64,000 bases of DNA from Sphingomonadales bacterium (GCA_016714795.1 JADKCA010000008.1:66083-130082); one strand, 5' to 3'; positions 17,569 through 35,593 are shown, counted from the stretch's first letter. The notes: a model not told the origin generated them from the sequence alone. Translations and numbers: made by a program.

Positions 17569-18524
17569 ATGTCCCAGCGTTTTTCAAACTTCGCCGATCT
17601 TGCAGATCATTATGCCGAGCAGGTCGCAAGCCCTGATTATGGCACCGCGTTCATGGAGCAGACCGAGATGGCGCGCCTCTCGATTGCAGAGGAACCGACC
17701 ACAGCCGAGATGCCCGATCCGGACAAGGCGCAGGCCGCGCTTGAGATGATCATGGCAACAGTCTTCGACCTGTTCCGCGATACACGCATGGAGGATTTCT
17801 CCGCCGAGATTGGCTGGGGCATTGCCAACAGCTTCCATGTCGTGGCGAAGCGCCTTGATGACCGCGAGGATGCCGCCAGCCAGAAGCTTACGGAATTGCT
17901 CAAGACCTGGGACCCGTCGGAAGTCTATCAGACCGAAGTCGAGGATTTGACGATGACGGCGCGGAGCCTGTCCGAATGCCGCGACGCGATGGAATGCATG
18001 CGCGAACATGCCGCCCGCATCTACCATGTCGAGACCGGAAGGCCGTTCTCTCCGGTGCGCGGCTCGCGGGTTGCCTCCAAAGCTACGGCATCAATGATCG
18101 AAGCCCGAGACTATATTGCCAGTCGGCCCAACAACGCCGTGAACAATATGCGCCATCGGGGGCTGTCGTCGCCTTCTCGGGCGGGCAAACATGGGCTGAC
18201 CATGAACTGATCTGGGAGTATCTCGACTGCATCAAAGCACGGATTCCGTCGATGATCCTCGCCACCACGGCACAGAACAAGGGTGCCGATGTCATCGCGG
18301 CAAGCTGGGCTGCAAAGAATGACGTGAAGGTCGTGCTGTGCCGTCTTGACCGTGCCTTGGGCAACCGCGCGGCCTTTGTGCGCAACGACCGGATCGTTGG
18401 CTTCCGTCCGGTGGAAGCGATCGTCTGCAGCGGAACCGGTATCCAGGCCAATCTCGCAGACAAGTTGCGGACCGCAGGCGTGCCGCTTCATGTCTTGCGC
18501 GAGCGGACAGTGATGCACGGTTGA
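17569..18524 (+). CDS. DUF2493 (SLOG-like)-domain protein with long N-terminal extension; frame break near 18125-18129 as assembled
   Basis: GGAGG lies before ATG 17569. Frame 1 reads to '...IEARDYIASRP'. The -1 frame continues 'QQRREQYAPSGAVVAFSGGQTWADHELIW...AFVRNDRIV...GTGIQANLADKLRTAGVP', which is DUF2493-type. The track splits it into 17557-18210 and 17976-18524. Confidence 0.65.
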
Positions 18525-19417: not shown

Positions 19418-19575
19418 CAAAAATGGCGGAAATACGTCAGTTTTGACGTTCGAAACTCCCGGCAGTTTGGGGTCTGATGAATGCTGTCTGGTCCCCAGAA
19501 ATGGCGGAATTTCGGGGACTCTGGAGGGCAGTTTTGATATAAATGCATGCCATATGGTCCCCAATCGGCTCTTGC
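19418..19575 (+). repeat. two tandem imperfect ~75-78-bp units at the 5' end of the first integrase gene (att/arm-site-like)
   Basis: AAATGGCGGAA at 19421 and 19499. CAGTTTTGA at 19438 and 19529. TGGTCCCCA at 19489 and 19555. Confidence 0.45.
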
Positions 19576-20726
19576 CCGGGAATCGGGCCTATCTTGATGG
19601 CAATCTGGTTCGCCGGAAAATGGGTGAGTCTGACCTGGATCAGGTCATCTGGGACAATGAACTGGCAGGCTTTGGTCTGCGGATCCGTCCGTCGGGCAAG
19701 CGCTATTGGTTCGTCCGTTTGCGCCAACGTGGACGGCACCGCCGTATCTCGCTGGGATGCACCGACGATGTCGAGGCACCGATCGCGCGGGGCGAGGCGC
19801 GTAGGCTGTTGGCAGAAGTTGCCCTTGACGGACTGCCCAAGCGGGTCGCGGCGAAAGTGGCTCCAGTACTCGCCGACTATGTGGATGAGTTCTGGACAGA
19901 TTGCGCACGGCACTGGAAGCCCTCAACCCAAAGGCGAAACCGGAATGCCTTGGAGAAGGAAATACTGCCAGCGTTCGGAGCCATGCGGATCGACCTGATC
20001 GGTCGGGCAGAGATCACCCGGTGGCGCGACGATTATGCCGATGGGCGCGGCTCGCGTTACAACCGCGCTGTTCCGGTTTTGGGCGCAATGTTCAAATATG
20101 CTGAGCAGCTTGGCTATATTCGCAAGAACTCCAACCCCTGCAAAGGCATGCCGGGTTTTAAACCGAACAAGAAGGAGCGCTTTCTCAGTCCGGTCGAGTT
20201 TCGCAGGCTCGCGCGTGAGCTGGATGCCGACGCGGCGTCCTATCCAGTGCATGTCGCCATTGTCCGCTTGCTGATTTTTACCGGCGCGCGGATCAGCGAA
20301 ATCCGCGACCTCCAATGGGACTGGGTGCAGTTGCCGCGCCTGGTGCTGCCTGACAGCAAGACCGGTCCCAAAACCATCTATCTCAACAGTCAGGCCGTTC
20401 GGATATTTGATGGCGTCGCCCGACACGGGGACTGCCGGTTTGTCTTCCCCAATGCAAAGCGCAATGCGCCCATCATTCTTGATCCGTGGTGGCTGCAATT
20501 CCGCCGCCGCTGCGCGATGCCCGACGTTCGCCTTCACGATCTGCGGCACAGTTTTGCATCGGTGGCAGTGCGGGAGAAGGTTCAACTCGCAACGATCGGC
20601 AGCCTTCTTGGTCATGCCTTACCCGAAACGACCGCGCGCTATGCCCACCTCGCTGATGATACTGTTGCCGAGGCTGCCCAGCGCGTTTCTGGCGGCCTTG
20701 CCGAAACACTGGGTCTGTCGGCATGA
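19554..20726 (+). CDS. tyrosine recombinase/integrase (P4-like, DUF4102-type N-domain)
   Basis: 'WDNELAGFGLRIRPSGKRYW' is the arm-binding-type N-domain. Catalytic set: 'TGARISE' (R), 'DSKTGPK' (K), 'HDLRHSF' (HxxR), 'LGH' and 'TARYAHL' (Y). The start (19554 or 19620) is uncertain. Confidence 0.85.
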   Translation: MVPNRLLPGNRAYLDGNLVRRKMGESDLDQVIWDNELAGFGLRIRPSGKRYWFVRLRQRGRHRRISLGCTDDVEAPIARGEARRLLAEVALDGLPKRVAAKVAPVLADYVDEFWTDCARHWKPSTQRRNRNALEKEILPAFGAMRIDLIGRAEITRWRDDYADGRGSRYNRAVPVLGAMFKYAEQLGYIRKNSNPCKGMPGFKPNKKERFLSPVEFRRLARELDADAASYPVHVAIVRLLIFTGARISEIRDLQWDWVQLPRLVLPDSKTGPKTIYLNSQAVRIFDGVARHGDCRFVFPNAKRNAPIILDPWWLQFRRRCAMPDVRLHDLRHSFASVAVREKVQLATIGSLLGHALPETTARYAHLADDTVAEAAQRVSGGLAETLGLSA

Positions 20727-21931
20727 CGAGCCTTTCGCTCAAACAAGTCGTTGAGAAGGCGCTGGCTGAAGTCGGTGCCAATCCGCGTATTGCGCGCAAG
20801 CCCAAGGGCAAAGCGCGCACAACCACGTGGCTCCAGGTCGAGCATGGCTTTGGCATCCGTCATTATCCAAGTGGTCGGCATGTCTATATCGTCCAGATGC
20901 GCATGGCAGGCCGTATGCGCACCGTCACCATTGGCCCAGCATCGGTTTTGACACGCCATCAGGCGATGATAGTTGCCCGGCGGGTCATTGCGCATGTGCG
21001 CGTCGGCCATGACCCGGCGACCACGCGGCAGCAAATCCGCAATGCGCCGAGCATGGACGACTTCATGGACGAGTATTGGGAGAAGTGTTCTCCCAGTTGG
21101 AAGCCATCGACGGTCGAAACGGCCACCGGCTATCGTCGCTGCCATATCGATGGGGCGTTTCCGGAGGCCTTCGTTGACAGCCTGACCGAGGCCGAGGTCA
21201 TCAAATGGTTTGTGGCGCTCACGGACAATTCCGGCCCCAGCGCTGCCAATCGCTGTTGGGAAATATTGCGCGCTGCCTTCAACAAGGCGGAGAGCTGGGG
21301 CTATCGCGTTGAAAACACCAACCCCTGCCTTGCCGTGCGTCAGAACAAGCGCATCCATCGCACGCGCTTTCTGTCGAACGACGAACTCACCCGGCTTGGA
21401 GTGGCATTGTCCGGAGCCCGAGAGAGCGAAGATCGCATGGAACAGGTCCATGCAACGGCGATTTTGCTACTGATCCTGACGGGATGCCGCATGGGTGAGA
21501 TTCTCGGGCTGCAATGGAGCGACGTCAAAGGGAACCGCCTCCTTCTGCGCGATAGCAAGACAGGGCCACGTACCGTCTGGCTAGGCGACGAGGCACGCGC
21601 GCTCGTCCAGGCGCTCCCTCGTGAGGGCAGTACTCCTTGGTTGTTTTGGAATTGGCGCTTCAAGAAGCCAATCCGCAACCTTGGCCATGTTTGGGATCGC
21701 TATCGGAACGAAGTTGGCCTCAAGAATGCCCATCTACACGATCTACGCCATACTTTTGCCAGCCATGCCGTGATGGGGAAGGAGAATCTGGCGATGGTTG
21801 GTAAGCTGCTTGGCCATGCCAAGGTGGCTTCGACTGCACGCTATGCCCATTTTGATGACGACCATCTGCTTGAAGCAGCAGAGGTCATTGGCGCAGCCAT
21901 CGAGCGGGCAATGCTGACGGGCAAACACTAA
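20723..21931 (+). CDS. tyrosine recombinase/integrase, second copy, overlapping the first by 4 nt
   Basis: 'TGCRMGE', 'DSKTGPR', 'HDLRHTF', 'LGH' and 'TARYAHF'. ATGA overlap at 20723-20726. Confidence 0.9.
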   Translation: MTSLSLKQVVEKALAEVGANPRIARKPKGKARTTTWLQVEHGFGIRHYPSGRHVYIVQMRMAGRMRTVTIGPASVLTRHQAMIVARRVIAHVRVGHDPATTRQQIRNAPSMDDFMDEYWEKCSPSWKPSTVETATGYRRCHIDGAFPEAFVDSLTEAEVIKWFVALTDNSGPSAANRCWEILRAAFNKAESWGYRVENTNPCLAVRQNKRIHRTRFLSNDELTRLGVALSGARESEDRMEQVHATAILLLILTGCRMGEILGLQWSDVKGNRLLLRDSKTGPRTVWLGDEARALVQALPREGSTPWLFWNWRFKKPIRNLGHVWDRYRNEVGLKNAHLHDLRHTFASHAVMGKENLAMVGKLLGHAKVASTARYAHFDDDHLLEAAEVIGAAIERAMLTGKH

Positions 21932-21973: not shown

Positions 21974-22399
21974 ATGTACAGAGTCGTTCTCGATACCGAC
22001 ATCATCGTGACGGCGCTGCGCAGTGCGACCGGTGGCAGCAATGCTGTTTTGCGTGAAGCGGCCTACGGACGGATTACGCCTTTGGTCACGCCAGCTTTGT
22101 TCCTCGAATATGAGGCGGTGCTGAAACGGCCCGAACAGCGACTTGTCCACGGACTTGGTTTGCGCGACATTGACCGCTTCCTGTCTGCTCTGGCAGCAGC
22201 CTGCGAAGCGGTCGAAGTCAGCTTCCAGTGGCGACCGCAATTGTCGGACGCCAATGACGAGATGGTTCTGGAAACAGCGGTCAACGGTCAGGCCGATGCG
22301 CTCATCACGCACAATGTGCGTGATTTTGTGAAGGGCGCGGAAAGGTTTGGGTTGCGGGTGTTGCGACCCGGCGAGTTTTTGAAGGAGTTACGGTCATGA
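21974..22399 (+). CDS. PIN-domain toxin
   Basis: 'MYRVVLDTDIIV...EMVLETAVNGQADALITHNVRDF' has PIN acidic residues in the usual positions. Confidence 0.8.
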   Translation: MYRVVLDTDIIVTALRSATGGSNAVLREAAYGRITPLVTPALFLEYEAVLKRPEQRLVHGLGLRDIDRFLSALAAACEAVEVSFQWRPQLSDANDEMVLETAVNGQADALITHNVRDFVKGAERFGLRVLRPGEFLKELRS

Positions 22400-22641
22400 G
22401 CAAAGCATCCTACCCGCTCAAACTGCCAGCCTCAGTGAAGGCTGCCGCTGCACGCCTTGCCAAGGAAGATGGCGTGTCGCTCAACCAATGGATTTCTGTG
22501 GCCATCGCGCAGAAGATCGGGGTTGTAGAGACTGCGGCTGATTTTCTCTCGCGACGGGCTGGGAAGGCCAAGGCCGCGGATATGTTGCCGTTTCTCGACA
22601 AGGCGAAGCGGGAAGCGCTGCCGGTTGGGGATGAGGTTTGA
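22396..22641 (+). CDS. small RHH/Arc-like antitoxin candidate (toxin-first order)
   Basis: ATGA overlap with the PIN gene. 'VSLNQWISVAIAQKIG' resembles the antitoxins paired with this PIN family. Confidence 0.6.
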   Translation: MSKASYPLKLPASVKAAAARLAKEDGVSLNQWISVAIAQKIGVVETAADFLSRRAGKAKAADMLPFLDKAKREALPVGDEV

Positions 22642-22856: not shown

Positions 22857-25800
22857 ATGAATGCTGTAGAAATTGAAGAAGCAGTATCGGAACTTGCAAG
22901 AAAGCCCTTTGATCGGGCCGATTTCGCGTATCAATTTCTAGCCGCCTTTGGGAACAAAGAAACCACCATAAAGCGGCTTCGCGCTGCCGGTGGCTCCAAC
23001 GCCTCAGATGTTCCTGGCGGCATACTCCAGCGTAACAACATTCACTTGGCGACATGCGCGGCGGGTGAGGTCGATGCGACGTTGAAGGCCTTGCGCGACA
23101 GTCCGAAAACAGCATCGGCCAAAGCCAAGTTCATTCTCGCCACCGATGGCGAGACGCTACAGGCGGAAGACGTCACCAGCGACGACCCGCCCATTGCGTG
23201 TGAGTATGCGAAATTCCCCGATCATTTCGGATTCTTCCTGCCGCTGGCAGGCATCACCACCGTCAAGCAAATCCGCGAAAGTTCGTTCGACATTCGCGCC
23301 ACGGGGCGGCTCAACAAGCTCTATGTCGAGCTGCTGAAAGACAATCCCGAATGGGCGACCGCCGAGCGCCGACCGGACATGAACCATTTCATGGCGCGGC
23401 TGATCTTCTGCTTTTTCGCGGAGGATACCGACATCTTCAATGGCACCGGCCTGTTCACTGCGACGACCGACCAGATGAGCGAGCGCGATTCGTCGAACAC
23501 GCACGACGTCATCAGCGAGATGTTCCGAGCGATGAACACCAAGATCGCGGATCGCGGGGATGCGAAATTACCGCGCTGGGCCGACGTGTTCCCCTATGTG
23601 AACGGCGGGCTGTTTTCAGGCAGCACCGAAGTGCCGCGCTTCAGCAAGATTGCTCGATCCTACCTGATCAATATCGGCAGCCTCGATTGGAAAAAGATCA
23701 ACCCCGACATTTTCGGCAGCATGATTCAGGCCGTTGCCGATGATGAGGAACGCGGCGCGCTGGGTATGCACTACACCAGCGTCCCAAACATCCTGAAGGT
23801 TCTGAATCCGCTGTTTCTCGATGATCTGCGCGCGCAGTTGGAGGAGGCGGGCGACAATGGGCGCAAGCTGCTCAACCTGCGTAACCGCATGGCGAAAATC
23901 CGGGTGTTCGATCCGGCCTGCGGCAGCGGCAATTTTCTTGTGATCGCATACAAGGAAATGCGCGCGATTGAGGCGGTGATCAACCAGCGCCGCAACGAGG
24001 AAGAGCGGCGCAGCGACATTCCGCTGACCAATTTTCGTGGTATCGAGCTGCGCGATTTTCCGGCTGAGATTGCGCGTCTGGCGCTCATCATCGCCGAATA
24101 TCAGTGCGACGTGACCTATCGCGGGCAGCAAGAGGCGCTGGCGGAACTGCTCCCGCTGGACGCGCAAAACTGGATCACTTGCGGCAATGCGCTGCGGCTC
24201 GACTGGCTGGGCATCTGCCCGCCGACAGGGACGGGTGTGAAAATGCAAGGCGACGATTTGTTTAACACCCCGCTTGATCAGGCTCAGATTGATTTCGAGA
24301 ATGAGGGAGGTGAGACATATATCTGTGGAAATCCTCCGTATGCGGGCTCCAACTGGCAAACTATAGATCAAAAAGAAGACTTACAAAGGTTGTTTCAGCA
24401 ACGGAAAATCAATTGGAAGCAGGTGGATTATATTTTTGGTTGGTTTTTTAAGGCGGCTGAATTTGGCACCAAAACTGAATCTTCCTCTGCCTTCGTTACC
24501 ACTAACTCAGTAAATCAAGGTCAAATTGCATCGATCATATGGCCACCTATTTTTGAAACTGGTCACGAAATCTCATTCGCCCACACGAGCTTTAAGTGGG
24601 CCAATTTAGCTAGCCACAATGCGGGCGTGACGGTTTCCATTGTTGGTATTTCACGGAATCTGACTTCTGCTCGAAAACTCTTTTCGTTAGCAGATGATGG
24701 GAGCACCCTTTTAAAGCTCGTAAATAATATAAATCCCTACCTAATTCCCGCACCAAATGTGTTTATTGAGCCTAGCGGGGAATCTCTTGGGTTCAGTGCG
24801 GAGATCACCGACGGATGTGGAGCGCTCGATGGAGGCAATCTGGTAGTTACATCTGACGAGTTGGCGGAAATGCTTACTCAAAAGCCATCAGGGATAATGG
24901 AGTTTATACGACCTTATACTGGTTCGACCGAGTTTATCAGAGGTTCTCTACGATGGTGCGTTTGGATCGCTGACGAAGATCGTGATAACGCTGCCACCTT
25001 TCCTGAAATTCAACGCAGGATCGATGCCACTTATCAGTTTAGATTGAAGGCGGGCACTCGAGCGCAAACGGCTATCAACCGGCCACATAAATTTGCATGG
25101 ATAAATCAGTCTCAGAACGAACAGATAATAGTTCCTAAACATTTTTCAGAACGGCGTGAATATGTGACGGCGGGTTATCTCACAAATGAATATATTGTGA
25201 GCAATTCTGCTACTATAGTCCACAATGCAACACTAGACATATTCTCAGTTATTTCATCGAAATTACACGTTGTTTGGGTGAAGGCCGTGGCGGGGCGGCT
25301 ACGTGAAGACATTCGTTATACACCGGCAACTTGTTACAACACATTTCCAGTCGCTCAACTGACAGAAACAGATAGGGCTAAACTAACTCGCTGCGCCGAG
25401 GACATCCTTCTCGCTCGTGAGGCTCATTTTCCCAAGACCATCGCTGAACTATACGACCCGGACGATATGCCGCAGAACCTCCGCCGCGCCCATGAAGCAA
25501 ACGACGAAGTGCTGGAACGCATCTACATCGGGCGGCGGTTCAAGAATGACACCGAGCGGCTGGAAAAGCTGTTTGAACTCTACACGAAGATGACTCAAAA
25601 TACTGGAAAGTCGTCAAAACCAAGAAAGTGGCAGCTTGACCATGACGACATCCAAACCCATCCCCGCAGTCTCATTTCAGACCGCGCGAACAGGCGCATC
25701 CGCCAAACCCAACGAAATGGGTATGCGCCAGATGCAGGAACGCGCCTATGCCAAGCGCGGCGAGCAATATCTGCTGATCAAATCGCCGCCCGCATCGGGC

Positions 25801-27767
25801 AAGTCCCGCGCGCTGATGTTCATCGCGCTCGACAAGCTCACAATCAGGATGTCAAACAAGCGATCATCGTCGTGCCTGAAAAGAGCATCGGCGGCAGCTT
25901 TGCCGATGAGCCGCTTTCAAAATTCGGCTTCTGGGCTGACTGGACGGTCAAGCCGCAATGGAATCTGTGCAACGCACCTGGCCCCGATGAAGAGCGCGTT
26001 GACCCCTCCAAGGTTCGCGCCGTGGGGCAGTTCCTCGCCAGCGATGACAAGGTGCTGGTTTGCACCCATGCGTCGTTTCGCTTCGCGGTGGAGCAACTTG
26101 GCATTGAGGCGTTCGACAATCGCCTGATCGCGGTGGACGAGTTCCACCACGTTTCCGCCAGTGCCGACAACAAGCTGGGCAGCCAGCTTGGCGATTTCAT
26201 CCACCGCGACAAGGTGCATCTTGTCGCCATGACAGGCAGCTATTTCCGGGGCGATGCCGTTCCCGTGTTGATGCCCGAGGATGAGGCGAAATTCGAGACT
26301 GTCACCTATACCTATTACGAACAGCTCAATGGCTATGAGCATCTGAAATCGCTCAACATCGGCTATTTTTTCTACACGGGTCGCTATCTGGGCGCGATTG
26401 AGGCCGTGCTTGATCCGTCGCGCAAAACCATTGTTCATATCCCTTCGGTCAATTCGCGCGAAAGCACAAAGGACAAGATCAAGGAAGTCGAAGAGATCAT
26501 GGAATATCTCGGCGATTGGAAGGGTGCCGATCCCGTCACCGGCTTCCACCTGGTCGAATTGCCCGCCGATGAAAACGGGAACGTCCGCACGATCAAGATT
26601 GCCGACCTTGTGGACGACAGCGATCAGGTGAAGCGCTCGAAGGTTCTGGCGGCTCTGAAAGACCCCGCGCACAAGAACAACCGCGACCATGTGGACATCA
26701 TCATCGCGCTCGGCATGGCGAAGGAGGGCTTTGACTGGATTTGGTGCGAACATGCGCTGACGGTCGGCTATCGCTCCAGCTTGACCGAGATCATTCAGAT
26801 CATCGGTCGTGCCACCCGCGATGCACCGGGCAAGGAAGTGGCGAGTTTCACCAATCTGATCGCGGAACCCGATGCGTCCGAAGCTGCCGTGGTCGATGCG
26901 ATCAACGATACGCTGAAAGCCATTGCGGCGAGCTTGCTCATGGAGCAGGTGCTTGCACCGCGTTTCAATTTTACCCCGAAGGATAACGGGCCGCTGCCCG
27001 ACTTCAAATATGAAGGTGGGTATCAGGAAGGGCAAACGAACGTCGGTTTCAACGAAGAACGCGGCCAGTTCCATTTCGAGATCAAGGGGCTTGTGACACC
27101 CAAGAGTCCCGAAGCAACCCGCATTTGCGCCGAAGATTTGAACGAAGTCATCACCGCGTTCGTGCAGGATAAGTCTGCTCTTGAGCGCGGTTTGTTCGAT
27201 GGTGCGCACGTTGGCGGCGAAACATTGGCGGAAGAACTGACCCAGCTCAAAATGGGCAAAATCGTGCGGGATCGTTACCCCGAATTATCGGGTGAAGATC
27301 AGGAGGCGGTGCGCCAGCACGCGGTTGCCGCGTTGAACCTGACCCAGAAGGCCAAGCAGCTTGCGGGCAGCGGCGATCCTGGAGCAGGCGACATTGATGA
27401 TGGCGAGGCGCGCTCCAATACCGCATTGATCGAGGGCGTTCGCAAATTCACGATTGAGGTGAAAGACCTCGACATTGACCTGATCGACCGGATCAATCCC
27501 TTTGAAGCGGCCTATTCCGTTCTCGCCAAGGCGATGAACGAAGGGACGTTGAAGCAGGTTGCCGCCGTGATCGGCAAGCGCAAAGTCAGCATTCCCTATG
27601 ACGAAGCCCGCGACCTGGCCGTGCGCGCTTTGCAGTGGAAAAAGGAACGCGGACGCGCGCCCGAGATCACGTCGCAAGATCCGTGGGAAAAGCGCCTTGC
27701 CGAAGGCGTTGCCGCCCTCGCGAAATTCCGCGCCCAGCAGGCAGCTCAAGAGTCTGCCAATGGTTGA
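22857..27767 (+). CDS. as-assembled 1636-codon ORF: MmeI/YeeA-type N6-adenine DNA methyltransferase (to ~25.6 kb) run together with the core of an SF2 (DExH) helicase (from ~25.84 kb)
   Basis: MTase: 'NGGLF', 'FDPACGSGNFLV' (motif I) and 'GNPPYAG' (motif IV). Helicase: 'AVDEFHH' and 'QIIGRATRD'. The helicase N-terminus with Walker A is in another frame (next feature). The true MTase 3' end is therefore uncertain, and a genuine fusion is doubtful. Confidence 0.75.
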   Translation: MNAVEIEEAVSELARKPFDRADFAYQFLAAFGNKETTIKRLRAAGGSNASDVPGGILQRNNIHLATCAAGEVDATLKALRDSPKTASAKAKFILATDGETLQAEDVTSDDPPIACEYAKFPDHFGFFLPLAGITTVKQIRESSFDIRATGRLNKLYVELLKDNPEWATAERRPDMNHFMARLIFCFFAEDTDIFNGTGLFTATTDQMSERDSSNTHDVISEMFRAMNTKIADRGDAKLPRWADVFPYVNGGLFSGSTEVPRFSKIARSYLINIGSLDWKKINPDIFGSMIQAVADDEERGALGMHYTSVPNILKVLNPLFLDDLRAQLEEAGDNGRKLLNLRNRMAKIRVFDPACGSGNFLVIAYKEMRAIEAVINQRRNEEERRSDIPLTNFRGIELRDFPAEIARLALIIAEYQCDVTYRGQQEALAELLPLDAQNWITCGNALRLDWLGICPPTGTGVKMQGDDLFNTPLDQAQIDFENEGGETYICGNPPYAGSNWQTIDQKEDLQRLFQQRKINWKQVDYIFGWFFKAAEFGTKTESSSAFVTTNSVNQGQIASIIWPPIFETGHEISFAHTSFKWANLASHNAGVTVSIVGISRNLTSARKLFSLADDGSTLLKLVNNINPYLIPAPNVFIEPSGESLGFSAEITDGCGALDGGNLVVTSDELAEMLTQKPSGIMEFIRPYTGSTEFIRGSLRWCVWIADEDRDNAATFPEIQRRIDATYQFRLKAGTRAQTAINRPHKFAWINQSQNEQIIVPKHFSERREYVTAGYLTNEYIVSNSATIVHNATLDIFSVISSKLHVVWVKAVAGRLREDIRYTPATCYNTFPVAQLTETDRAKLTRCAEDILLAREAHFPKTIAELYDPDDMPQNLRRAHEANDEVLERIYIGRRFKNDTERLEKLFELYTKMTQNTGKSSKPRKWQLDHDDIQTHPRSLISDRANRRIRQTQRNGYAPDAGTRLCQARRAISADQIAARIGQVPRADVHRARQAHNQDVKQAIIVVPEKSIGGSFADEPLSKFGFWADWTVKPQWNLCNAPGPDEERVDPSKVRAVGQFLASDDKVLVCTHASFRFAVEQLGIEAFDNRLIAVDEFHHVSASADNKLGSQLGDFIHRDKVHLVAMTGSYFRGDAVPVLMPEDEAKFETVTYTYYEQLNGYEHLKSLNIGYFFYTGRYLGAIEAVLDPSRKTIVHIPSVNSRESTKDKIKEVEEIMEYLGDWKGADPVTGFHLVELPADENGNVRTIKIADLVDDSDQVKRSKVLAALKDPAHKNNRDHVDIIIALGMAKEGFDWIWCEHALTVGYRSSLTEIIQIIGRATRDAPGKEVASFTNLIAEPDASEAAVVDAINDTLKAIAASLLMEQVLAPRFNFTPKDNGPLPDFKYEGGYQEGQTNVGFNEERGQFHFEIKGLVTPKSPEATRICAEDLNEVITAFVQDKSALERGLFDGAHVGGETLAEELTQLKMGKIVRDRYPELSGEDQEAVRQHAVAALNLTQKAKQLAGSGDPGAGDIDDGEARSNTALIEGVRKFTIEVKDLDIDLIDRINPFEAAYSVLAKAMNEGTLKQVAAVIGKRKVSIPYDEARDLAVRALQWKKERGRAPEITSQDPWEKRLAEGVAALAKFRAQQAAQESANG
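25642..25843 (+). CDS. helicase N-terminal segment encoded in the +1-offset frame (Walker A 'SPPASGKS')
   Basis: Track ORF 25636-26127 reads 'MTTSKP...MRQMQERAYAKRGEQYLLIKSPPASGKSRALMFIALDKL'. It then loses sense exactly where the long ORF frame gains helicase sense ('HNQDVKQAIIVVPEKSIGG'). A one-nucleotide gap at about 25839 (CTC-CAC read as CTCAC) would join them. Confidence 0.7.
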
Positions 27768-28974
27768 TCTGTCGGACGACGAATTGCTCGCAGAACTCGG
27801 CGTTAGCGTCGAGCAAAAGGCTGCACGCGCCTATACGCCGCAGCAGGAGCGGATCATCGCGGGCTTTGAGGACATTCTCAAATTCCACGATGAGCATGGC
27901 CGCGCGCCGCAGCACGGTGAGCAGCGCGACATATTCGAGCGGCTTTATGCAGTGAGGCTCGATCGCCTGCGTGAGCTGGAGGATTGCCGTTCGCTTTTGG
28001 CAGGCTTGGACAAGCACGGTTTGCTTGAGGCGAATACGGATGCCAGCCACATCGTTCCCGATGCGCTGGATGATGATGCGTTGCTTGCTGAACTAGGCAT
28101 TGATCCTGGCGGCGATGATGACATCACGCAGCTTCGCCATGTGCAAACACGCGAGGAACGGCAGGCCGCCGAAGAGATCGCCAACCGCGAACGCTGCATT
28201 GATTTTGCGAAATTTCAGCCGCTGTTTGCCGATGTGCAGCTCGAACTTGATTCCGGCGTTCGTAGCACCCGCCCTTTCGTAAAGGACGCCGGATTTCTGA
28301 AAGCCGACATCGGCGCGGGCCAATTTTTCATCCTGGGCGGTCAGACAGCCTATGTGGCTGAGGTTGGCGAGACCATTAAGGCCCCAAATGGCGAGTTCGA
28401 CGCTCGCTTAAGGGTCATCTATTCCAATGGGACGGAGAGCAACCTGTTGCGCCGCTCCCTGCAACGCGCGCTTTACAAGGATGATGCAGGGCGGCGCATT
28501 ACCGATCCAGCGGCGGGGCCGCTTTTCTCTGACAATGCGGACGAAGACGACACCGAAAGCGGGACGATCTATGTCTTGCGGAGCAAGTCCGACCATCCCC
28601 AGATCGCCCAGCACCGTGACCTGATCCACAAGATCGGCGTGACGGGTGGCAGTGTCACGACGCGCATTGCGGCAGCGGAGAACGATGCAACCTACCTGCT
28701 GGCCGGCGTCGAGATCATCGCCGAATACAAGCTGTTCAACATCAACCGGACGAAGTTGGAAAGGCTGATCCACCGATTTTTCGCTGACGCCGCATACGAC
28801 ATCCAAATTACTGATCGCTTCGGTAAGCCCGTCCGGCCCCGTGAATGGTTTCTCGTGCCGCTCCATGTGATCGACGAGGCTGTTCAGCGGATACGAGACG
28901 GCACGATTACGGAGTGCCGATACGATGCCAAGGCTGCTCGCTTGGTGCATACCTCCTTGGGAAAATTGTCATGA
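27760..28974 (+). CDS. GIY-YIG / T5orf172-type nuclease-domain protein
   Basis: ATG 27760 overlaps the helicase stop (ATGGTTGA). The C-terminal domain reads 'GTIYVLRS...IHKIGVTGGSVTTRI...NRTKLERLIHRFF...REWF'. Confidence 0.8.
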   Translation: MVDLSDDELLAELGVSVEQKAARAYTPQQERIIAGFEDILKFHDEHGRAPQHGEQRDIFERLYAVRLDRLRELEDCRSLLAGLDKHGLLEANTDASHIVPDALDDDALLAELGIDPGGDDDITQLRHVQTREERQAAEEIANRERCIDFAKFQPLFADVQLELDSGVRSTRPFVKDAGFLKADIGAGQFFILGGQTAYVAEVGETIKAPNGEFDARLRVIYSNGTESNLLRRSLQRALYKDDAGRRITDPAAGPLFSDNADEDDTESGTIYVLRSKSDHPQIAQHRDLIHKIGVTGGSVTTRIAAAENDATYLLAGVEIIAEYKLFNINRTKLERLIHRFFADAAYDIQITDRFGKPVRPREWFLVPLHVIDEAVQRIRDGTITECRYDAKAARLVHTSLGKLS

Positions 28975-30977
28975 GCAACGTCAATGTCCGTCGTTTGGTC
29001 GAGAATATCCGTTCTGGCACCAATATCTACACGCCCATTGTCGAACTGGTGGTAAATGCCATTCAGGCGATTGACGAGAAAAAGATCGCGAAGTTTGGAT
29101 TGGTCGAAATCGAGACCGTGCGTGATGGCCAATCTGACATGGTGGACAAGCTCGAATCTGTCGACGGCTTCAACGTCATCGACAACGGTATTGGCTTCAA
29201 CCGTACGCACCGAGACTCATTTGACACGCTCTATACCGAGCAAAAAATTGGCGATGGCGGCAAAGGATTCGGTCGCTTCACCTGCCTCAAATATTTTAGC
29301 AAGGTTGAGGTTAGCAGCGTATTTGAAGAAGGCGACGAATGCTTCCAGCGGTCCTTCAAAATGGGACTGGATAAGGAAATAATAGTAGCAGAGGCGATTG
29401 AGACCATCGAGCGGATCGGCACCGGCTCATTGGTCAAAATCTCAGAAATCAAATCGGTGAAATTCCCGGACAAAGGCCTTGAGATCATTGCTCGTGTCAT
29501 TGTCGAAAAGCTGCTGCCCTATTTTGTTGAAAGGGATGAGGCTAAAAAGTGCCCCCGCATCGTAATTCGGGAGGCTAAGAAGCCTGACACCAATATCGTG
29601 CTCAATGACTATCTGGGCAAAGCGGACAGCCAGATCGTTGAGATGCCTGTTGCCAACGGCAAATTTTCACTGTCCTCGCCCGATGGCCCCAAGGAATTCG
29701 AGGTCCGCGTTTTCAAATTCTACTCACCGCGGGAAAGCAAAAGCAAAATCAGTCTGGTTGCACATCGGCGTGAGGTGACGGAAACGACGCTGCAAACATA
29801 CATCCCGGAATTTGCTGAAGAGTTTTACGAGCCTGTGCCCGAAGGTCGGGACCGCAATTTTCTGATTAAGGCCTATGTGTTCGGCGATTACCTCAATGAT
29901 AACGTTTCGTTGGAAAGAGGCGAATTCCGCTTTCAGACCGAAAGCGATTTGTCGGGCGGGATCGCGCAAAAAGACATCGAATACAAAGCCGCCGAAATCG
30001 CCCAAGCCGCAGTAGGATCGGAGATCGCTGCACGCAAAGAGCGAAAGCAGCAGACCATCGAACAATACGTCGCTACGGAAGCGCCTTGGCATCGTTTGAC
30101 GATAACCCAAGCCGACCTGAGCGACCTACCTTATAAGCCTACTAAGCCACAAATCGAAGCGCATCTCCAAGCCAAGAAATTTGAGACCGAACTGCAAACT
30201 CGCACCCAGGTTGCGGCGCTTTTGGCGGACGATAGCCACGCCGACCTAAACGGTAAGGTCGAGGAACTGGTCAAACGGATTTCAGAAACTAGCAAGAGCG
30301 ACCTCATCCATTATGTCTCCATGCGGAAATGCGTGCTCGATATCTTCGAAAAATCCCTCGAACGGGACGAGCAAGGAAAATACAAATCCGAGGGTGAGGT
30401 ACACGACATTATCATGCAGCGGAAAAAGGATTCGGACGAGATCGATTGGGAGACCCACAATCTTTGGATGCTAGATGAACGCTTGAACTTTGCTGCCTAC
30501 GTCTCTTCCGAAAAGCCTATTAACGCGGGCAATGGAAGCCGCACTGACATCACCATTTTCGATAAGCGAGTTGCATTTCGTGGTGAGAATGAGGCGAGCA
30601 ACCCGATCACCATTTTCGAATTCAAAAAGCCGTCAAGAGATGACTTTGCCAATCCTTCATCCAAAGAAGATCCCGTCCAACAGATCATTCGATACGTGAA
30701 CCAAATCCGCGACGGTAATTTCAAAACCCCCAAGGGCCGCGAGATTCTGGTAAACGAAAACACCCCCTTTTACGGCTATGTCGTGTGTGAGCTGACGCAA
30801 AAGGTGAAGACTTGGCTGGATCGTGAAAAGAATTTCACGCCAATGCCTGACGGGCTGGGCTGGTTCACCTGGTATCCAAATAACCGCCTCTACATGGAGG
30901 TTTTGAGCTGGGATAAAATTTTGAAAGACGCTGAGATGCGCAACAAAGTTTTTTTCAACAAACTTGGACTTGAGTAA
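28971..30977 (+). CDS. GHKL (Hsp90/MutL/MORC-like) ATPase with C-terminal PD-(D/E)xK-like domain
   Basis: ATGA overlap with the upstream gene. 'ELVVNAIQA', 'DNGIGF' and 'GDGGKGFGRF'. The C-terminal part has 'RTDITIFD...ITIFEFKKP'. Visibly AT-richer than its neighbours. Confidence 0.75.
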   Translation: MSNVNVRRLVENIRSGTNIYTPIVELVVNAIQAIDEKKIAKFGLVEIETVRDGQSDMVDKLESVDGFNVIDNGIGFNRTHRDSFDTLYTEQKIGDGGKGFGRFTCLKYFSKVEVSSVFEEGDECFQRSFKMGLDKEIIVAEAIETIERIGTGSLVKISEIKSVKFPDKGLEIIARVIVEKLLPYFVERDEAKKCPRIVIREAKKPDTNIVLNDYLGKADSQIVEMPVANGKFSLSSPDGPKEFEVRVFKFYSPRESKSKISLVAHRREVTETTLQTYIPEFAEEFYEPVPEGRDRNFLIKAYVFGDYLNDNVSLERGEFRFQTESDLSGGIAQKDIEYKAAEIAQAAVGSEIAARKERKQQTIEQYVATEAPWHRLTITQADLSDLPYKPTKPQIEAHLQAKKFETELQTRTQVAALLADDSHADLNGKVEELVKRISETSKSDLIHYVSMRKCVLDIFEKSLERDEQGKYKSEGEVHDIIMQRKKDSDEIDWETHNLWMLDERLNFAAYVSSEKPINAGNGSRTDITIFDKRVAFRGENEASNPITIFEFKKPSRDDFANPSSKEDPVQQIIRYVNQIRDGNFKTPKGREILVNENTPFYGYVVCELTQKVKTWLDREKNFTPMPDGLGWFTWYPNNRLYMEVLSWDKILKDAEMRNKVFFNKLGLE

Positions 30978-31257: not shown

Positions 31258-33288
31258 TTAACCGTTGGCAATTCTACGGAACAAAGGGATCCACGGGTGA
31301 TTCGCCTTGCGCGACGCCGTATGAAGCAGCGGAAGGCTGTTGTTAGGCACCGTATTGGGCAGCACGAGCAGCAATGCCTGTCCGCCATAACCCAGCGGAT
31401 TGTCTGGATAGATGTTCGCGCCGATCTCGGTAGCGAGTGACTTTGCGCGATCGTATTCGTCATGCCCCGAAAAAACACCCGTGGCACCCGAGAAGGCAAA
31501 CAAACTGCTTGGTAGTACATCGCCGGTCCGAAAGTCCACATCGGGATATTCTAGCGATTTGAGTGTCTCGAGGACCCTACGTCGCCCATCCTCAGTTGCA
31601 AAGAGTGAACAGACCTCGACCCTCAGTTGGTAACGGGTGAGCAACTGGGCGTGACGTTCGACGAAGGCCTTCATCTTCTTCGAAAGTGTCCCTCCGGTGC
31701 CCACGATGTCATCGACGATCACGATCGCCTTGGGCGTTCCGTGCTTTGCCGCGAAGCGTTCGAACTCCTCCTCGAACGCGGCAGGCGAGAGGATGCCAAG
31801 CGTCTCGATTAGATTAGCCTCGGCGTAGTCCGAAGCGTATCGCTGTCCGCTCTTGCCCTCTCCGTCCACGTAGGTCAGTACGACGTCCGTTCGCTTCTCG
31901 GCGCGACTGCGGCGCGAGGGAACGCCGAGCACATCGCGTATGACCTGTCCCGCCTGCCTGAGCCGAACGAGGACCTCATCCTGACCGACGATCCGTACCG
32001 ACTGCAGAAGCTCGAATAGCACGCGCTGATCGCGGTTCCCCGGCCTCTGCTCAAGCCAGCGCCTCACGGTTTCGGGGCCGACCTGAGTCCCGCAATAGGG
32101 TTTCCAACGTTCGGTCAGCCCCACGATCTCGGCCGCTTGAACGTAAGCCTCGTCATCCAGCTTCTGCTGCAGACCGGCCAGCTCTGCCGACAATCCATCA
32201 TTCGCAAGTCGACTAACGCCGACCTCCAGCAGCCAGCGACGGAAGATTGGAAGAGCGACATCGAAGCCCGCGTCGGTCTCGACCAGTACACCGCGGTCCA
32301 CGAGGTTGTTCAGCACGGGTGCAAGCTCCACCTCGTCGATGGCGCTAGGGCCTCGGTGCGCCTGGATAGCTTGAAGAGTCGCCGGCTTCTCAGCCCGAAG
32401 ACATCTAGCTACGGCGGCCAGCGCGCGTCGCCTCTTGAGGATGACCGCCTCCCGATCCTCGACGGCGCTCGCAGTCCCATCCTCCCACAGGTGCATGAAG
32501 GCGTTCGTGTCCAGTGCCGAGACGTTTCTCGTGACCGCGCGTTCGACCTCCCGCGCGGTGATGTCCCCGTCGCGCTCGGCGACGGCTGCGGCAGCTACCT
32601 GCTTGCAGATGATCTTACTGAAATACGGATTGCCGTTAGTCATGTTGAACACAGCTGAGATGGCATCCGCATGCCAGGTGAGCACGTCCTCGGAGGGGCC
32701 CCTGATCATGCGCGTGAACTCATCGAACTCCTGACTGCGTGAGAAATAGGTCAGGTTCACCCGGTTGAACTTGTTCAGCCTTGCACCCTGACGTTCCATT
32801 ACGAACGGCATGTTCTCACCGCCGACCAACAAGAGACTGAAGTTCGTACTGGTGGTCAGAGCGCGAATGTTGCCAAAGAGCGTGACCGCCAAGTCGCCGT
32901 GAAGCCAGAGCGCCTCCGGCATCTCATCGAACTCGTCAATGAAGATCGCAAACCGTCGCGCCGGATTGCGGTCGCGCGCGACGTCGAGAAGATCCATCAG
33001 CGGCGCGAGGCTGCCGTCGTATTCCGCGCTCGCGGGAGCTTCGCCGTCGATGCCCTCGAGAACGATGCGTTCCATCGCTCGGCCGAGCTGACTCATCGAG
33101 CGCCTCGGATCCTCATGCGCGACGCGGCCCCAAAGAATTTCACCCGTCACAAGCTCGCCTTCATGGTCCTCGGCGCGCGCCTCGGCCATTGCCGTCCGCG
33201 CGAGGGACGTCTTGCCGACTCTCTTCTGGCCCGTGACGTAGGATGGCTCCATCGGACGTTGAAGAAACCGCGCGACCAGCGTCTCCAC
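31258..33288 (-). CDS. AAA/STAND-like ATPase - winged-helix region - C-terminal phosphoribosyltransferase (PRTase) domain
   Basis: Walker A 'GQKRVGKTS', Walker B 'AIFIDEFDE' and PRPP-loop-like 'IVIVDDIVGTGGTL'. The same frame reads on upstream of GTG 33288 as '...WNPYSTEPAEGPGFYGRKEQ', the typical pre-Walker-A motif, with no start codon. It is therefore probably fused to the next ORF. Confidence 0.75.
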   Translation of the reverse strand: METLVARFLQRPMEPSYVTGQKRVGKTSLARTAMAEARAEDHEGELVTGEILWGRVAHEDPRRSMSQLGRAMERIVLEGIDGEAPASAEYDGSLAPLMDLLDVARDRNPARRFAIFIDEFDEMPEALWLHGDLAVTLFGNIRALTTSTNFSLLLVGGENMPFVMERQGARLNKFNRVNLTYFSRSQEFDEFTRMIRGPSEDVLTWHADAISAVFNMTNGNPYFSKIICKQVAAAAVAERDGDITAREVERAVTRNVSALDTNAFMHLWEDGTASAVEDREAVILKRRRALAAVARCLRAEKPATLQAIQAHRGPSAIDEVELAPVLNNLVDRGVLVETDAGFDVALPIFRRWLLEVGVSRLANDGLSAELAGLQQKLDDEAYVQAAEIVGLTERWKPYCGTQVGPETVRRWLEQRPGNRDQRVLFELLQSVRIVGQDEVLVRLRQAGQVIRDVLGVPSRRSRAEKRTDVVLTYVDGEGKSGQRYASDYAEANLIETLGILSPAAFEEEFERFAAKHGTPKAIVIVDDIVGTGGTLSKKMKAFVERHAQLLTRYQLRVEVCSLFATEDGRRRVLETLKSLEYPDVDFRTGDVLPSSLFAFSGATGVFSGHDEYDRAKSLATEIGANIYPDNPLGYGGQALLLVLPNTVPNNSLPLLHTASRKANHPWIPLFRRIANG

Positions 33289-34456
33289 CTGTTCCTTGCG
33301 CCCATAAAAGCCCGGCCCCTCGGCCGGTTCGGTGCTGTACGGGTTCCAGAACTTCCAGTTTCGACCAATCCACGTCTGAACGCTGGGCGAGCATCCGAAC
33401 GCCGAATATCTCCTCCTTGCCTTTAACTTCTCCCGCTTCGCGCCAGCGGACCTCTACGTCGAAGTCGATCGCATCGCAGGACGTTGCCACAATGACGTCC
33501 ACGGCAGCTCCGAATTCCCCGGGAGCTATCTCGCCCAATATCTGCTCTTGATCGTCGACAAGCACCGACGGGTCGGAGCACGATACGCGATACACCACAT
33601 CCATTGCGGGGCCCGGACCTTCGTTGCGGAAAGGTATTACCACCCGTAGCTCGCGTTCCGCCTCGTGGAGCGGATACCGTTTCTGCAGCGCCAAGCTTTC
33701 ACGCTCGGCACGGACCACACGTGCCGCGAGCCGCCCCTTCATAGCACCAAGGAAGACGTTCAGAGCCTGCTCGGCATTCTCGAGCAAGCCACGCAGCGCA
33801 CTCGTCAGGAAGGATGGTCGACGATCCGCCAGCTCCGCCCCTCTTGCGATCTCCTGACGCGAGGCCTCGAGATCAGATTCGAAGCCGGCATCCATCTGAA
33901 GCACACGAGCGAGCGAAGAGGTGAGGTGGTCGATAACCTCCGCGACCTCGCCGACATGCCACGGCCTGCAGTAGGTGCGCACCTGAGAATGTTGCAGGGC
34001 ACCGGTCAGCCGACCCTTCGCACCTACGAGCGTATTCAGGCTGGCATAGGGCGTGCCGAGCGGCTCTAGTATCTTCGTTATACTGCTATGCGCGCCCCGG
34101 AGTTGCTCGAGCTTCTCGTAGTTCTGAGTCTTCGGCTGCACCCCGACGAACTGACATAGCTTCGGCAGGGCAGCCTCGCATAAAGATACGACGCTACGAG
34201 CCAACGCGTCCTGCCGTCCGTCAGAGAATACCCCGGCCTCGAGCGCGCGAAGAACCACGGCCGCAGCAAGATCGCGTCCGGCGGGAGCTTGGGAGACCGC
34301 GATCACTGCATCGGCAGTCGACCCCTCGACGGGAACATCCGCCGTGCTGAACAGGTAACGACGCAACGCGAGCCGTGCCCCGTCAAAATCCTGCGCTGCG
34401 ATCGCGACCTCAAATGCAGTAAGATGGTCTTCGAGAAGACTGGAGCTTTCGTTCAT
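33161..34456 (-). CDS. N-terminal region ORF of the ATPase-PRTase gene (helical part + beta-rich segment); frame break near 33341-33343 as assembled
   Basis: ATG 34456 with GAGG upstream. It makes sense up to '...DVDWSKLEVLE', then becomes Gly/Arg nonsense where the ATPase frame gains sense. The break lies at a C-run (GGG on the plus strand). Confidence 0.6.
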   Translation of the reverse strand: MNESSSLLEDHLTAFEVAIAAQDFDGARLALRRYLFSTADVPVEGSTADAVIAVSQAPAGRDLAAAVVLRALEAGVFSDGRQDALARSVVSLCEAALPKLCQFVGVQPKTQNYEKLEQLRGAHSSITKILEPLGTPYASLNTLVGAKGRLTGALQHSQVRTYCRPWHVGEVAEVIDHLTSSLARVLQMDAGFESDLEASRQEIARGAELADRRPSFLTSALRGLLENAEQALNVFLGAMKGRLAARVVRAERESLALQKRYPLHEAERELRVVIPFRNEGPGPAMDVVYRVSCSDPSVLVDDQEQILGEIAPGEFGAAVDVIVATSCDAIDFDVEVRWREAGEVKGKEEIFGVRMLAQRSDVDWSKLEVLEPVQHRTGRGAGLLWAQGTGGDAGRAVSSTSDGAILRHGPEESRQDVPRADGNGRGARRGP

Positions 34457-34871
34457 GTATTCCCGCCTCAGGACCTGATACTGTTTCTAAGCTCTAGCGT
34501 TATGTTGCTTAGACTAGCAACACCCTGATTGGCAGGTGGGTCTTTTGTCCTCGACGGCTGGCTAAGAGATATTCGCCTTTAGAGCCCGGCCGCTTGAAAA
34601 CCGCTGCCCTGCTGCCAACATCCGTTTGGCTGAGGCGGCTGCTACCAAACGAGCGGAGGGCAAACGGCCGACCTTGCTTTCGCCGCACGCCCTTCGAACG
34701 GCCGCTGCATCGGAAACCCGCCATTCACGGTCGCGTCAGTGAACGACGGCTTCGTCCCACTCCCGGTCATTCTTGTTCGCTTGCCGCTTCATGATCCGCT
34801 GGAAGGGGCGCGGATGATGACGGGCTCGTAAGGTGATTGCTGGGTGAACTACGCTCAAAGGAGAAAGGCAC

Positions 34872-35015
34872 ATGAAGCCGCCCAAGACCCTGCAAGGTTT
34901 TGGTGTCAGGCCAGCAAAGGGTGCCAAGCCACGACGTTGGCGAAGTGAGTGCATTCAGAGGCCGATTAAAACAAAGCCGTCACCGCCCAAGAAAACATCC
35001 CCTTTCATGAACTGA
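34872..35015 (+). CDS. possible small basic ORF (47 codons)
   Basis: AAGGAGAAAGG lies 4 nt before ATG 34872 ('MKPPKTLQGFGVRPAKGAKPRRW...'). Not in the track because it is under 60 aa. There is no other support. Confidence 0.2.
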   Translation: MKPPKTLQGFGVRPAKGAKPRRWRSECIQRPIKTKPSPPKKTSPFMN

Positions 35016-35087
35016 TCCAAGCCCCTGACCGGACCCGGCCAGGTCTGCAACCCGCGCTCATGCGGACCGTGTTGCTGCGCTTCGCGC

Positions 35088-35180
35088 CGCTGCCCGCACC
35101 ACTCCTGTGAGCGGGGTTTCCCTCACTGCGTTCGGTGCAGTCCTGACCGTGCCCGGTCTTATCGGGGCTCAGTCAAAGGG
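35088..35180 (+). promoter_or_regulatory. conserved non-coding element upstream of ssb (copy 2)
   Basis: Homologous blocks to 16425-16540 (GCCCGCACCACTCCT at 35092-35106, and others). Confidence 0.4.
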
Positions 35181-35224
35181 ATGGTCCCTTGGACGGTTTG
35201 AAACAGCTTCGAAAGGTCAATCTC

Positions 35225-35593
35225 ATGAAGAACACAGTCACTCTCGTCGGCTTCGTTGGCAACACGCCGGAAGTCCGCACCACCCAATCAGGCGCATCGA
35301 TCACAAGCGTCTCTCTCGCCACAACCCGCAGCTTCAAGGACGGCGAAGGCAACCGCCAGACCGAGACCGAATGGCACCGCATTACCTGCTTCAACGGCAT
35401 CGGCAAATGCGTCGCAGAGCATGTCGCCAAGGGCGCGATGATCATGGTCACGGGCCGTATCCATTACACCAAATGGACCGACCAGAATGGCACCGACCGT
35501 TACGGCTGTGAGATCATCGCCGAGCAGGTCGACTTCCTCGCCAAGGCGAAGGAAGCCTCCAAGGATGAACCCAAGAAGCGGCGCACCAAGTAG
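35225..35593 (+). CDS. ssb: single-stranded DNA-binding protein, second copy, basic C-terminal tail
   Basis: 'MKNTVTLVGFVGNTPEVR...TEWHRITCFNGIGKCVAEHVAKGAMIMVTGRIHYTKWTDQNG'. It ends '...KDEPKKRRTK' instead of an acidic tip. Confidence 0.85.
   Translation: MKNTVTLVGFVGNTPEVRTTQSGASITSVSLATTRSFKDGEGNRQTETEWHRITCFNGIGKCVAEHVAKGAMIMVTGRIHYTKWTDQNGTDRYGCEIIAEQVDFLAKAKEASKDEPKKRRTK

Follow-up and report, generated by a model that had tools for sequence, protein, structure and literature searches.

The window analysed here, a stretch of 64,000 nucleotides of Sphingomonadales bacterium DNA (GCA_016714795.1, JADKCA010000008.1:66083-130082), carries at positions 22857-30977 four confirmed genes, which encode an MmeI-family methylase, a superfamily 2 (SF2) helicase, a T5orf172/GIY-YIG protein and a GHKL ATPase-nuclease. 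Overall, we conclude that this locus is probably a restriction-modification (R-M)-like cassette of the YeeABC type, situated on a mobile element and followed by a co-transcribed, functionally separable paraMORC3 passenger. On the basis of domain families and gene order we assign the first three genes to the YeeA(DnmA)/YeeB/YeeC cluster, and the fourth gene product is predicted from its structural model to have the paraMORC3 architecture. An earlier interpretation made from the DNA letters alone (hereafter the sequence-only reading) had described the locus as an uncharacterised four-component system; this is not supported, since genes 1-3 correspond to YeeABC (PMC2731913) and gene 4 to the paraMORC3 architecture.

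Results

The distribution of these genes was followed in two surveys, one anchored on YeeC (80 metagenomic loci with a YeeC homologue, the denominators being the loci with room) and the other anchored on the GHKL protein (its best 80 loci, one genome per species). A helicase gene was present upstream of yeeC in 60/60 loci and an MmeI-type methylase gene in 46/46; the three-gene core was invariant in every locus checked, and at least 485 metagenomic YeeABC loci were confirmed. A GHKL gene was found downstream of yeeC in one of 61 loci, and YeeABC upstream of the GHKL gene in eight of the best 80 (L009-L013, L029, L037 and the remnant L040). Co-conservation of all four genes, which the sequence-only reading had named as a check and whose failure it counted as refutation, therefore holds for the core but not for the GHKL gene, which is also absent from the plasmid loci L001 and L002. 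Three GHKL homologues at 68-98% identity (L003/L004, L006, L007/L008) all stand behind methylase, (variable gene), helicase and T5orf172 genes. Among the GHKL loci without YeeABC, 28 of 62 had no co-directional gene within 200 bp upstream, while other coupled GHKL genes were situated behind type I, III, ISP, IIG or GmrSD genes, the coupled neighbours being enriched in restriction genes (ResIII, N6_Mtase, HsdM_N, Methylase_S, GmrSD, MmeI-type, type ISP, Mrr, Vsr). GHKL proteins 90-91% identical to that of the window are encoded by solo genes in L169 and L170, in unrelated contexts; a blastn comparison of the window with these two loci found nothing, and no yeeC remnant was detectable in them. 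It is because of the 1/61 and 8/80 counts and of these near-identical solo copies that we consider the GHKL gene a separable passenger. In a neighbour-joining tree most YeeABC-linked GHKL proteins fall into one clade, which also holds L018 and L088, both located behind type I R-M genes.

The position occupied by the GHKL gene in the window is a variable slot. In 46 of 69 loci with room there is no coupled open reading frame (ORF) 3' of yeeC, and a direct stop-to-start search for yeeC neighbours revealed a reverse transcriptase with an 8-nt overlap in L090, an OLD ATPase-TOPRIM protein in L109 and L137, SMC/AAA_23 ATPases in L153 and L160, a NucS-like nuclease in L127 and an AAA_13 ATPase in L110. 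Another slot lies between yeeA and yeeB, where 23 of 45 loci carry extra genes (0.4-4.1 kb) belonging to at least two unrelated families; in the window it is empty, as in 22/45 loci.

All coding between 22857 and 30977 is on the + strand according to an ORF scan. The helicase stop and the yeeC start overlap in ATGGTTGA (27760-27767), and the yeeC stop and the GHKL start in ATGA (28971-28974). The domains, the motifs and both overlapping junctions named in the sequence-only reading were all present in Pfam, ORF and junction checks; of the profile searches that it proposed, those in Pfam returned the MmeI domains, DEAD/ResIII/Helicase_C and T5orf172, with a weak match for HATPase_c. G+C content is 0.50-0.54 in parts of the module against ~0.60 in the flanks. 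A search for promoters and terminators between 22300 and 31400 found no more of them than shuffled sequence would give.

Pfam, PADLOC and phmmer results identify the first gene (22857-25639, + strand) as that of a yeeA/dnmA-type N6-adenine methyltransferase of the MmeI family that has its own target-recognition domain. Its first 928 codons match five MmeI Pfam domains, MmeI_N, MmeI_hel, MmeI_Mtase (2e-113), MmeI_TRD (1e-61) and MmeI_C, and the motifs FDPACGSGNFLV and GNPPYAG are present. Among solved structures the sole phmmer match was MmeI itself (5hr4, 1e-125), in an alignment that begins at methylase residue 131, equivalent to MmeI residue 148. Since MmeI aligns only from residue 131 and no [DE]xK motif occurs in residues 1-135, the enzyme is predicted to lack the MmeI nuclease motif, in accordance with the absence of a nuclease triad from the N-domain noted in the sequence-only reading.

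The PADLOC check proposed there was informative for one part of the locus. The model REase_MTase_IIG (PDLC03598) matches the methylase end to end with 920 bits, and nothing was found for YeeC or the GHKL protein in PADLOC and NCBIfam scans, the helicase receiving only weak PbeA and dnd matches. Because of the REase_MTase_IIG match, automated defence annotation can be expected to label YeeA-type genes as complete type IIG R-M enzymes and to overlook their helicase and GIY-YIG partners. Weaker PADLOC matches of the methylase were DrmMI (4.7e-31, partial), mad2 (4e-8) and PglX (2.6e-6), and its NCBIfam scores were far below cut-offs.

Comparison with L003 also showed that window positions 24342-25653 and L003 positions 4437-6682 cannot be aligned across the target-recognition and C-terminal half of the methylase and the next gene, with 92-95% identity on both sides of this stretch. 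The difference is a cassette swap, which is expected to alter the DNA motif recognised and removes the 283-aa middle gene.

The helicase gene (25642-27767, + strand; 708 codons when repaired) is of the yeeB type, with DEAD, ResIII and Helicase_C Pfam matches to an SF2 (DExH) enzyme and the motifs SPPASGKS (Walker A), AVDEFHH (DEFHH) and QIIGRATR. These motifs are not all in the same frame: SPPASGKS lies in another frame (ORF 25636-26127), while AVDEFHH and QIIGRATR are in the frame of the methylase. An ORF finder accordingly reports a single ORF of 1636 codons at 22857-27767, which is the combined result of two lesions. Lesion 1, evident from alignment with L090, is a 4-nt deletion at 25616-25628 (+ strand) in the A-rich part encoding the methylase's Lys-rich tail. 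Through the resulting frameshift the original methylase stop, TGA at 25637-25639, is now out of frame and unread. Frame 2 of the window reads ...KTKKVAA* there, akin to ...KTKKKEAA* in L090, and a Lys-rich tail of this kind closes the methylase in L090 and in ten more loci, where the stop codon either precedes the start of the helicase gene by a few bases or overlaps it. Lesion 2 (25838/25839, + strand), evident from alignment with L003 and L004, is the loss of 1 nt (GCTGCAC to GCTCAC) behind helicase codon 66, which puts the remainder of the helicase gene into the methylase frame. The two lesions lie within 230 bp of each other, and ~5.5 kb aligned with L003 contain no other indels. The fusion ORF thus consists of methylase residues 1-921, 74 out-of-frame codons and helicase residues 67-708, without Walker A. 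Repairing lesion 2 alone restores the 708-aa helicase and leaves a methylase ORF of 1007 aa that runs ~240 nt into the helicase gene. The 'frame break' of the sequence-only reading is therefore real in the sense that the frame is interrupted, but it comprises two deletions, of 4 nt and 1 nt, and not one.

The repaired helicase gene is 95.7% identical in nucleotide sequence to that of L003, with 84 synonymous and 4 non-synonymous codon changes, which indicates that purifying selection acted on it until very recently. Either the lesions arose by recent mutation or they are errors of the assembly; if they are real, the restriction arm would be dead, with the methylase, YeeC and the GHKL nuclease intact. 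Another example of cassette decay is L040, a metagenome-assembled genome contig in which positions 2031-6207 hold an MmeI-type methylase gene and 69 helicase residues joined directly to the GHKL protein from its residue 154, a structure left by the deletion of most of yeeB, the whole of yeeC and the N-terminus of the GHKL protein.

RefSeq names homologues of the helicase 'pseudomurein-binding repeat-containing protein'. The helical C-terminus at residues ~650-678 (27580-27680) resembles the PMBR model with 24.6 bits, just below the cut-off of 24.9, and the name is almost certainly misleading for a cytoplasmic helicase.

The yeeC-type gene (27760-28974, + strand) encodes 404 aa, with an unannotated N-terminal region and a C-terminal T5orf172 domain (GIY-YIG-related) at residues 268-379 (T5orf172 3.8e-15, MUG113 1.4e-11). 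Residues Y271, G293, R302 and E362 are invariant in the homologue alignment. The N-terminal region contains two copies of an acidic motif, D-D-x-L-L-A-E-L-G, at residues ~6-17 and ~104-115 (window 27775-27810 and 28069-28104), both kept in 6/6 aligned homologues; the motif may be a docking peptide.

The fourth gene (28971-30977, + strand; 668 aa) was recognised as paraMORC3-type from a weak HATPase_c match, its motifs (ELVVNAIQA, DNGIGF, GDGGKGFGRF and RTDITIFD...IFEFKKP), an AlphaFold2 model (pLDDT 91.5) and Foldseek. Four regions can be delimited, a GHKL ATPase domain (~1-190), a transducer/S5-like domain (~190-310), a helical linker (~330-465) and a PD-(D/E)xK nuclease domain (~465-668). 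In Foldseek the first ~500 residues match Topo VI-B, GyrB, Hsp90/TRAP1, SMCHD1 and MORC4 at E-values of 1e-12 to 1e-9, and the alignments of the model with Topo VI-B, GyrB 43K, Hsp90, MORC4 and SMCHD1 span 400-530 columns; these matches indicate a GHKL domain with a transducer domain. When residues 425-668 were modelled separately (pLDDT 82.8), the best Foldseek match was McrC (probability 0.92), followed by MspJI, MUS81 and FokI, all of them weak (E=0.01 and above). McrC, MspJI, MUS81 and FokI all have the PD-(D/E)xK fold. Pfam matches of the C-terminal domain to HSDR_N and PDDEXK_9 are sub-threshold.

The family of this protein is large (2620 clusters at 50% identity, E<=1e-3), with full-length matches of ~660-680 aa down to 30% identity. 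In 70 diverse members E25, N29 and D71 of the GHKL motifs are invariant and G73 nearly so; in the nuclease region E474, D502, E503, D526, E550 and K552 are invariant, giving an E-D-ExK signature. The C-terminal PD-(D/E)xK nuclease that the sequence-only reading attributed to this ATPase is in accordance with the invariant E474, D526, E550 and K552 and with the Foldseek results. Among the 70 relatives HATPase_c was matched in 40 and HATPase_c_3 in 18. Members of 667-668 aa share ~65-68% identity across lineages as far apart as Peregrinibacteria, Chloroflexota, Desulfobacterales, Pseudomonas aeruginosa and Alphaproteobacteria at nearly invariant length, and this combination of identity and constant length points to frequent horizontal transfer and tight structural constraint.

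The surroundings of the module are those of a mobile element. Two tandem tyrosine integrase genes (19443-20726 and 20723-21931, + strand; Phage_integrase, Arm-DNA-bind_3 and Phage_int_SAM_3 in Pfam) form the upstream edge of the island, a layout also present in the related loci L003, L007 and L008. They are followed by a toxin-antitoxin (TA)-like pair, a PIN_3 toxin (21974-22399, + strand; 3.1e-21) and a HicB-like 81-aa protein (22396-22641, + strand; 6e-5). The same PIN and 81-aa pair precedes the methylase gene in L004, and a vapC gene precedes it on the plasmid L001. Plasmid-borne relatives are located between type IV secretion system and relaxase genes, and 43 plasmid records showed DNA similarity to portions of the module, chiefly its methylase and helicase genes.

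Downstream, the window encodes a TrwB-type coupling protein (43932-46583) and a TrwC relaxase-helicase (46587-49553). With these conjugation genes in the 37503-49553 region, the island is taken to be part of a conjugative or mobilisable element. The description of the locus as an R-M-like, defence-type operon on a mobile element, also given in the sequence-only reading, thus agrees with the integrases and TA pair upstream and TrwB/TrwC downstream. Between the module and trwB there are defence-like ATPases, an SMC_N/AAA_23 protein (37503-40136) and an AAA_13 protein (40647-42671; 6e-139) with a 280-aa partner (42675-43517). Upstream of the integrases lie an SSB gene (16361-16891) and a YAcAr/SLOG-family gene (17976-18524), both typical of an integrative conjugative element backbone; a second SSB-region match to L003 was observed at 34754-35934. 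No tRNA gene marking an integration site is present in the window.

Directly 3' of the module, convergent and on the - strand (31258-34456), are genes for a 676-aa protein that combines an AAA/STAND-like ATPase at its N-terminus with a PRTase-CE effector domain (2.7e-39) at its C-terminus, and then a 431-aa ORF with no Pfam match. L003 has a DUF6602 protein and a 271-aa ORF at this position instead, and for this reason we regard the pair as another swappable defence-like cargo.

Discussion

How such a locus could work can be proposed from its relatives. By analogy with DnmA and the MmeI family, the methylase would recognise an asymmetric site through its own target-recognition domain and mark host DNA with N6-methyladenine (m6A). 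The N-terminal domain of YeeA would take the place of the MmeI nuclease and, on unmodified DNA, recruit or license YeeB and YeeC, after which the SF2 helicase/translocase YeeB and the GIY-YIG-type nuclease YeeC would cut the invader, as hypothesised by Morgan et al. (2009). The product of the fourth gene would be a dimeric clamp, driven by ATP, that attacks foreign DNA alone with its C-terminal E-D-ExK nuclease, as VcSduA does, and the GHKL gene would gain co-expression and co-transfer from the variable slot 3' of yeeC. This autonomy of the GHKL nuclease is suggested by the distribution of the family together with the VcSduA analogy. In a literature search no mechanistic study of the methylase-helicase-GIY-YIG core was found, and in this respect the claim of the sequence-only reading that the mechanism is unpublished stands.

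Several observations weigh against a YeeABC-type cassette with a separable passenger. YeeABC of Bacillus subtilis showed no restriction or defence (PMC7261158, PMC9973331), and there is no published biochemistry for any step of a YeeABC mechanism. The nuclease domain of the GHKL protein is not recognised by the Shedu (SduA_C) model, and VcSduA was compared by its description. The ATGA overlap between yeeC and the GHKL gene occurs also in L003, L006, L007, L009, L011 and L089, the cassette of four or five genes has been kept in several alphaproteobacterial orders, with 54-70% protein identity, and in the neighbour-joining tree the YeeABC-GHKL linkage in L029 appears to be phylogenetically independent; together these three facts could reflect a real functional partnership in this lineage.

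Such a partnership is the basis of the explanation by an integrated four-component system, in which the GHKL protein would serve both as a MutL-like matchmaker and as a second nuclease, working with a hemimethylating methylase, a helicase and a GIY-YIG nuclease, and would loop DNA between recognition and cleavage sites, as put forward for paraMORCs in R-M operons by Iyer et al. (2008). It would explain why the ATGA translational coupling is kept in at least seven loci and the cassette across Sphingomonadales, Hyphomicrobiales, Rhodobacterales and Acetobacteraceae, and why the linked GHKL proteins form essentially one clade with the independent L029 in addition. Nevertheless, we think it unlikely, since 60/61 YeeABC loci have no GHKL gene and 72/80 GHKL loci no YeeABC, near-identical GHKL genes occur solo, L018 and L088 are nested in the linked clade yet stand behind type I R-M genes, and unrelated defence genes fill the same slot elsewhere. 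Slightly less probable still is that, in this alphaproteobacterial lineage, paraMORC3 was recruited as a true fourth subunit of YeeABC, a MutL-like, ATP-driven clamp reading the hemimethylation left by the MmeI-type methylase and coordinating the GIY-YIG and PD-(D/E)xK nucleases with the helicase; if true, it would make YeeABC with its fourth subunit a methyl-directed, mismatch-repair-like restriction machine.

A more serious competitor, still less likely than the favoured reading, is that the locus is a decaying relic, its restriction arm inactivated, its methylase an orphan epigenetic enzyme as argued for DnmA, and the 1636-codon ORF a pseudogene artefact. The removal of the methylase stop and the helicase Walker A by two frame-breaking deletions within 230 bp speaks for it, as do the precedent in B. 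subtilis (PMC9973331) and the lack of further indels in the ~5.5 kb aligned to L003, which shows that assembly errors are not rampant. On the other hand, the ratio of 84 synonymous to 4 non-synonymous changes indicates recent purifying selection, the lesions could be assembly errors, one of them lies within an A-rich run, and yeeC and the GHKL gene are intact. The same ORF could also be read at face value, as a natural single-chain methylase-helicase of the type ISP kind; it is uninterrupted from 22857 to 27767, and single-chain helicase-methylase relatives are mentioned by Morgan et al. 2009 (PMC2731913). This is very improbable, and indeed refuted by the reading frames and the alignments at the two lesions, because the junction consists of helicase sequence read out of frame for 74 codons, the Walker A lies in another frame, methylase and helicase are separate ORFs in 45/45 related loci with both, and the fusion product has no nuclease domain.

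We thus favour, with reasonable but not full confidence, a YeeABC cassette carrying a separable paraMORC3 gene. The window locus itself is ordinary, and it is the surrounding survey that gives useful points. YeeABC is abundant yet missing as a system from PADLOC-DB v2, and its methylase is scored as 'type IIG R-M' despite having no nuclease. As a family, paraMORC3 is very large, with strong conservation across phyla, and its members are usually alone or trail varied R-M operons, which favours an autonomous role. The intact relatives L003 and L007 are better experimental material than the damaged copy in the window.

Comparison with known systems

The closest known system is DnmA(YeeA)-YeeB-YeeC. 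In Morgan et al. 2009 (PMC2731913) a second group of MmeI homologues is described that have no PD-ExK, are unlike MmeI in their first ~100 residues and 'invariably' have a DEAD helicase (YeeB-like) and a GIY-YIG protein (YeeC-like) on their flanks; the authors found YeeA expressed alone to be without endonuclease activity and proposed a type I-like R-M system with single-strand modification. In B. subtilis, m6A at GACGAG is the product of YeeA, renamed DnmA, and transformation is unrestricted (Nye et al. 2020, PMC7261158). The dnmA-yeeB-yeeC synteny is conserved; no protection against three Bacillus phages was found, and the locus was called a relic (Fernandez et al. 2023, PMC9973331). In Vibrio crassostreae, yeeAB mediates resistance to a phage subclade (Piel et al., bioRxiv 10.1101/2021.05.05.442762). 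The window encodes the same three proteins in the same order, an m6A methylase of the MmeI family without nuclease, then a DEAD/DExH SF2 helicase, then a T5orf172/GIY-YIG protein, likewise on acquired DNA beside recombinases and toxin-antitoxin genes. It differs in the translationally coupled GHKL-nuclease gene and in the two frame lesions.

With MmeI (type IIL/IIG, 5hr4) the methylase, helical spacer, target-recognition and C-terminal domains align (E=1e-125), and by analogy modification of a single strand is expected of the window methylase too. MmeI, in contrast, is an enzyme that works alone and holds a PD-ExK nuclease in its first ~100 residues; the corresponding region of the window protein is unaligned and has no [DE]xK motif; cleavage is presumably delegated to separate proteins. 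Type IIL/IIG in the sense of MmeI proper was ruled out, as there is no PD-ExK endonuclease in the methylase chain. Type I and ISP R-M systems share the logic of a methylase/specificity module, an SF2 motor and a nuclease. Type I differs in that the window has no HsdS or HsdR, its GIY-YIG-type nuclease is separate and specificity resides inside the MmeI-type chain; type ISP was rejected because the fusion ORF arose from two deletions and has neither Walker A nor a nuclease domain. BREX, DISARM and MADS were ruled out by partial or weak methylase matches and by the absence of partner genes. Hma, the helicase-methylase-ATPase type of locus that the sequence-only reading had mentioned as a listed defence candidate, consists of the helicase HmaA, the 5-methylcytosine (m5C) methyltransferase HmaB and the ATPase HmaC (PMC8565338). 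The window locus is not Hma, since its methylase is an N6-adenine enzyme of the MmeI type and no PADLOC Hma model matches.

For the fourth gene the nearest description is paraMORC3, defined by Iyer, Abhiman & Aravind (2008) as a GHKL ATPase with an S5/transducer domain and a C-terminal restriction-endonuclease fold, many members of which stand alone. The window protein shares this architecture, with the E-D-ExK residues, and its family likewise occurs beside R-M genes or alone, mostly in Proteobacteria and Bacteroidota; measured by the published definition, no difference was detected. Proteins of GHKL-nuclease architecture were later placed in Shedu type 1D. VcSduA (PMC12137116, 2025), whose defining feature is a DUF4263/SduA_C nuclease domain, is protective as a single gene, and its E27A and K557A mutants are inactive. 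It has the same domain order as the window protein and near-identical Glu/Lys spacing (E27/K557 against E25/K552), and both are single-gene residents of defence islands beside GmrSD-like genes. Unlike VcSduA, the window protein has no SduA_C match in Pfam at E<=10, and among its 70 relatives one was matched (E=0.004). PADLOC SduA models did not match the GHKL protein, Foldseek of the separate C-terminal-domain model returned no Shedu structure, and a profile search of PDB sequences gave no Shedu match; a protein search with the gammaproteobacterial member L023 showed no Vibrio cholerae entry among the 120 matches listed.

Finally, the variable slots of YeeABC resemble those that hold 'embedded' defence genes in Hma, BREX, DISARM and type I R-M operons (Payne et al. 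2021, 2024). As in Hma-type operons, the slots hold other defence genes in the same orientation, such as those for ABC/OLD ATPases, GmrSD-like genes and reverse transcriptases. The YeeABC slots thus extend 'guilt-by-embedding' to another host system and give a list of candidate defence genes.

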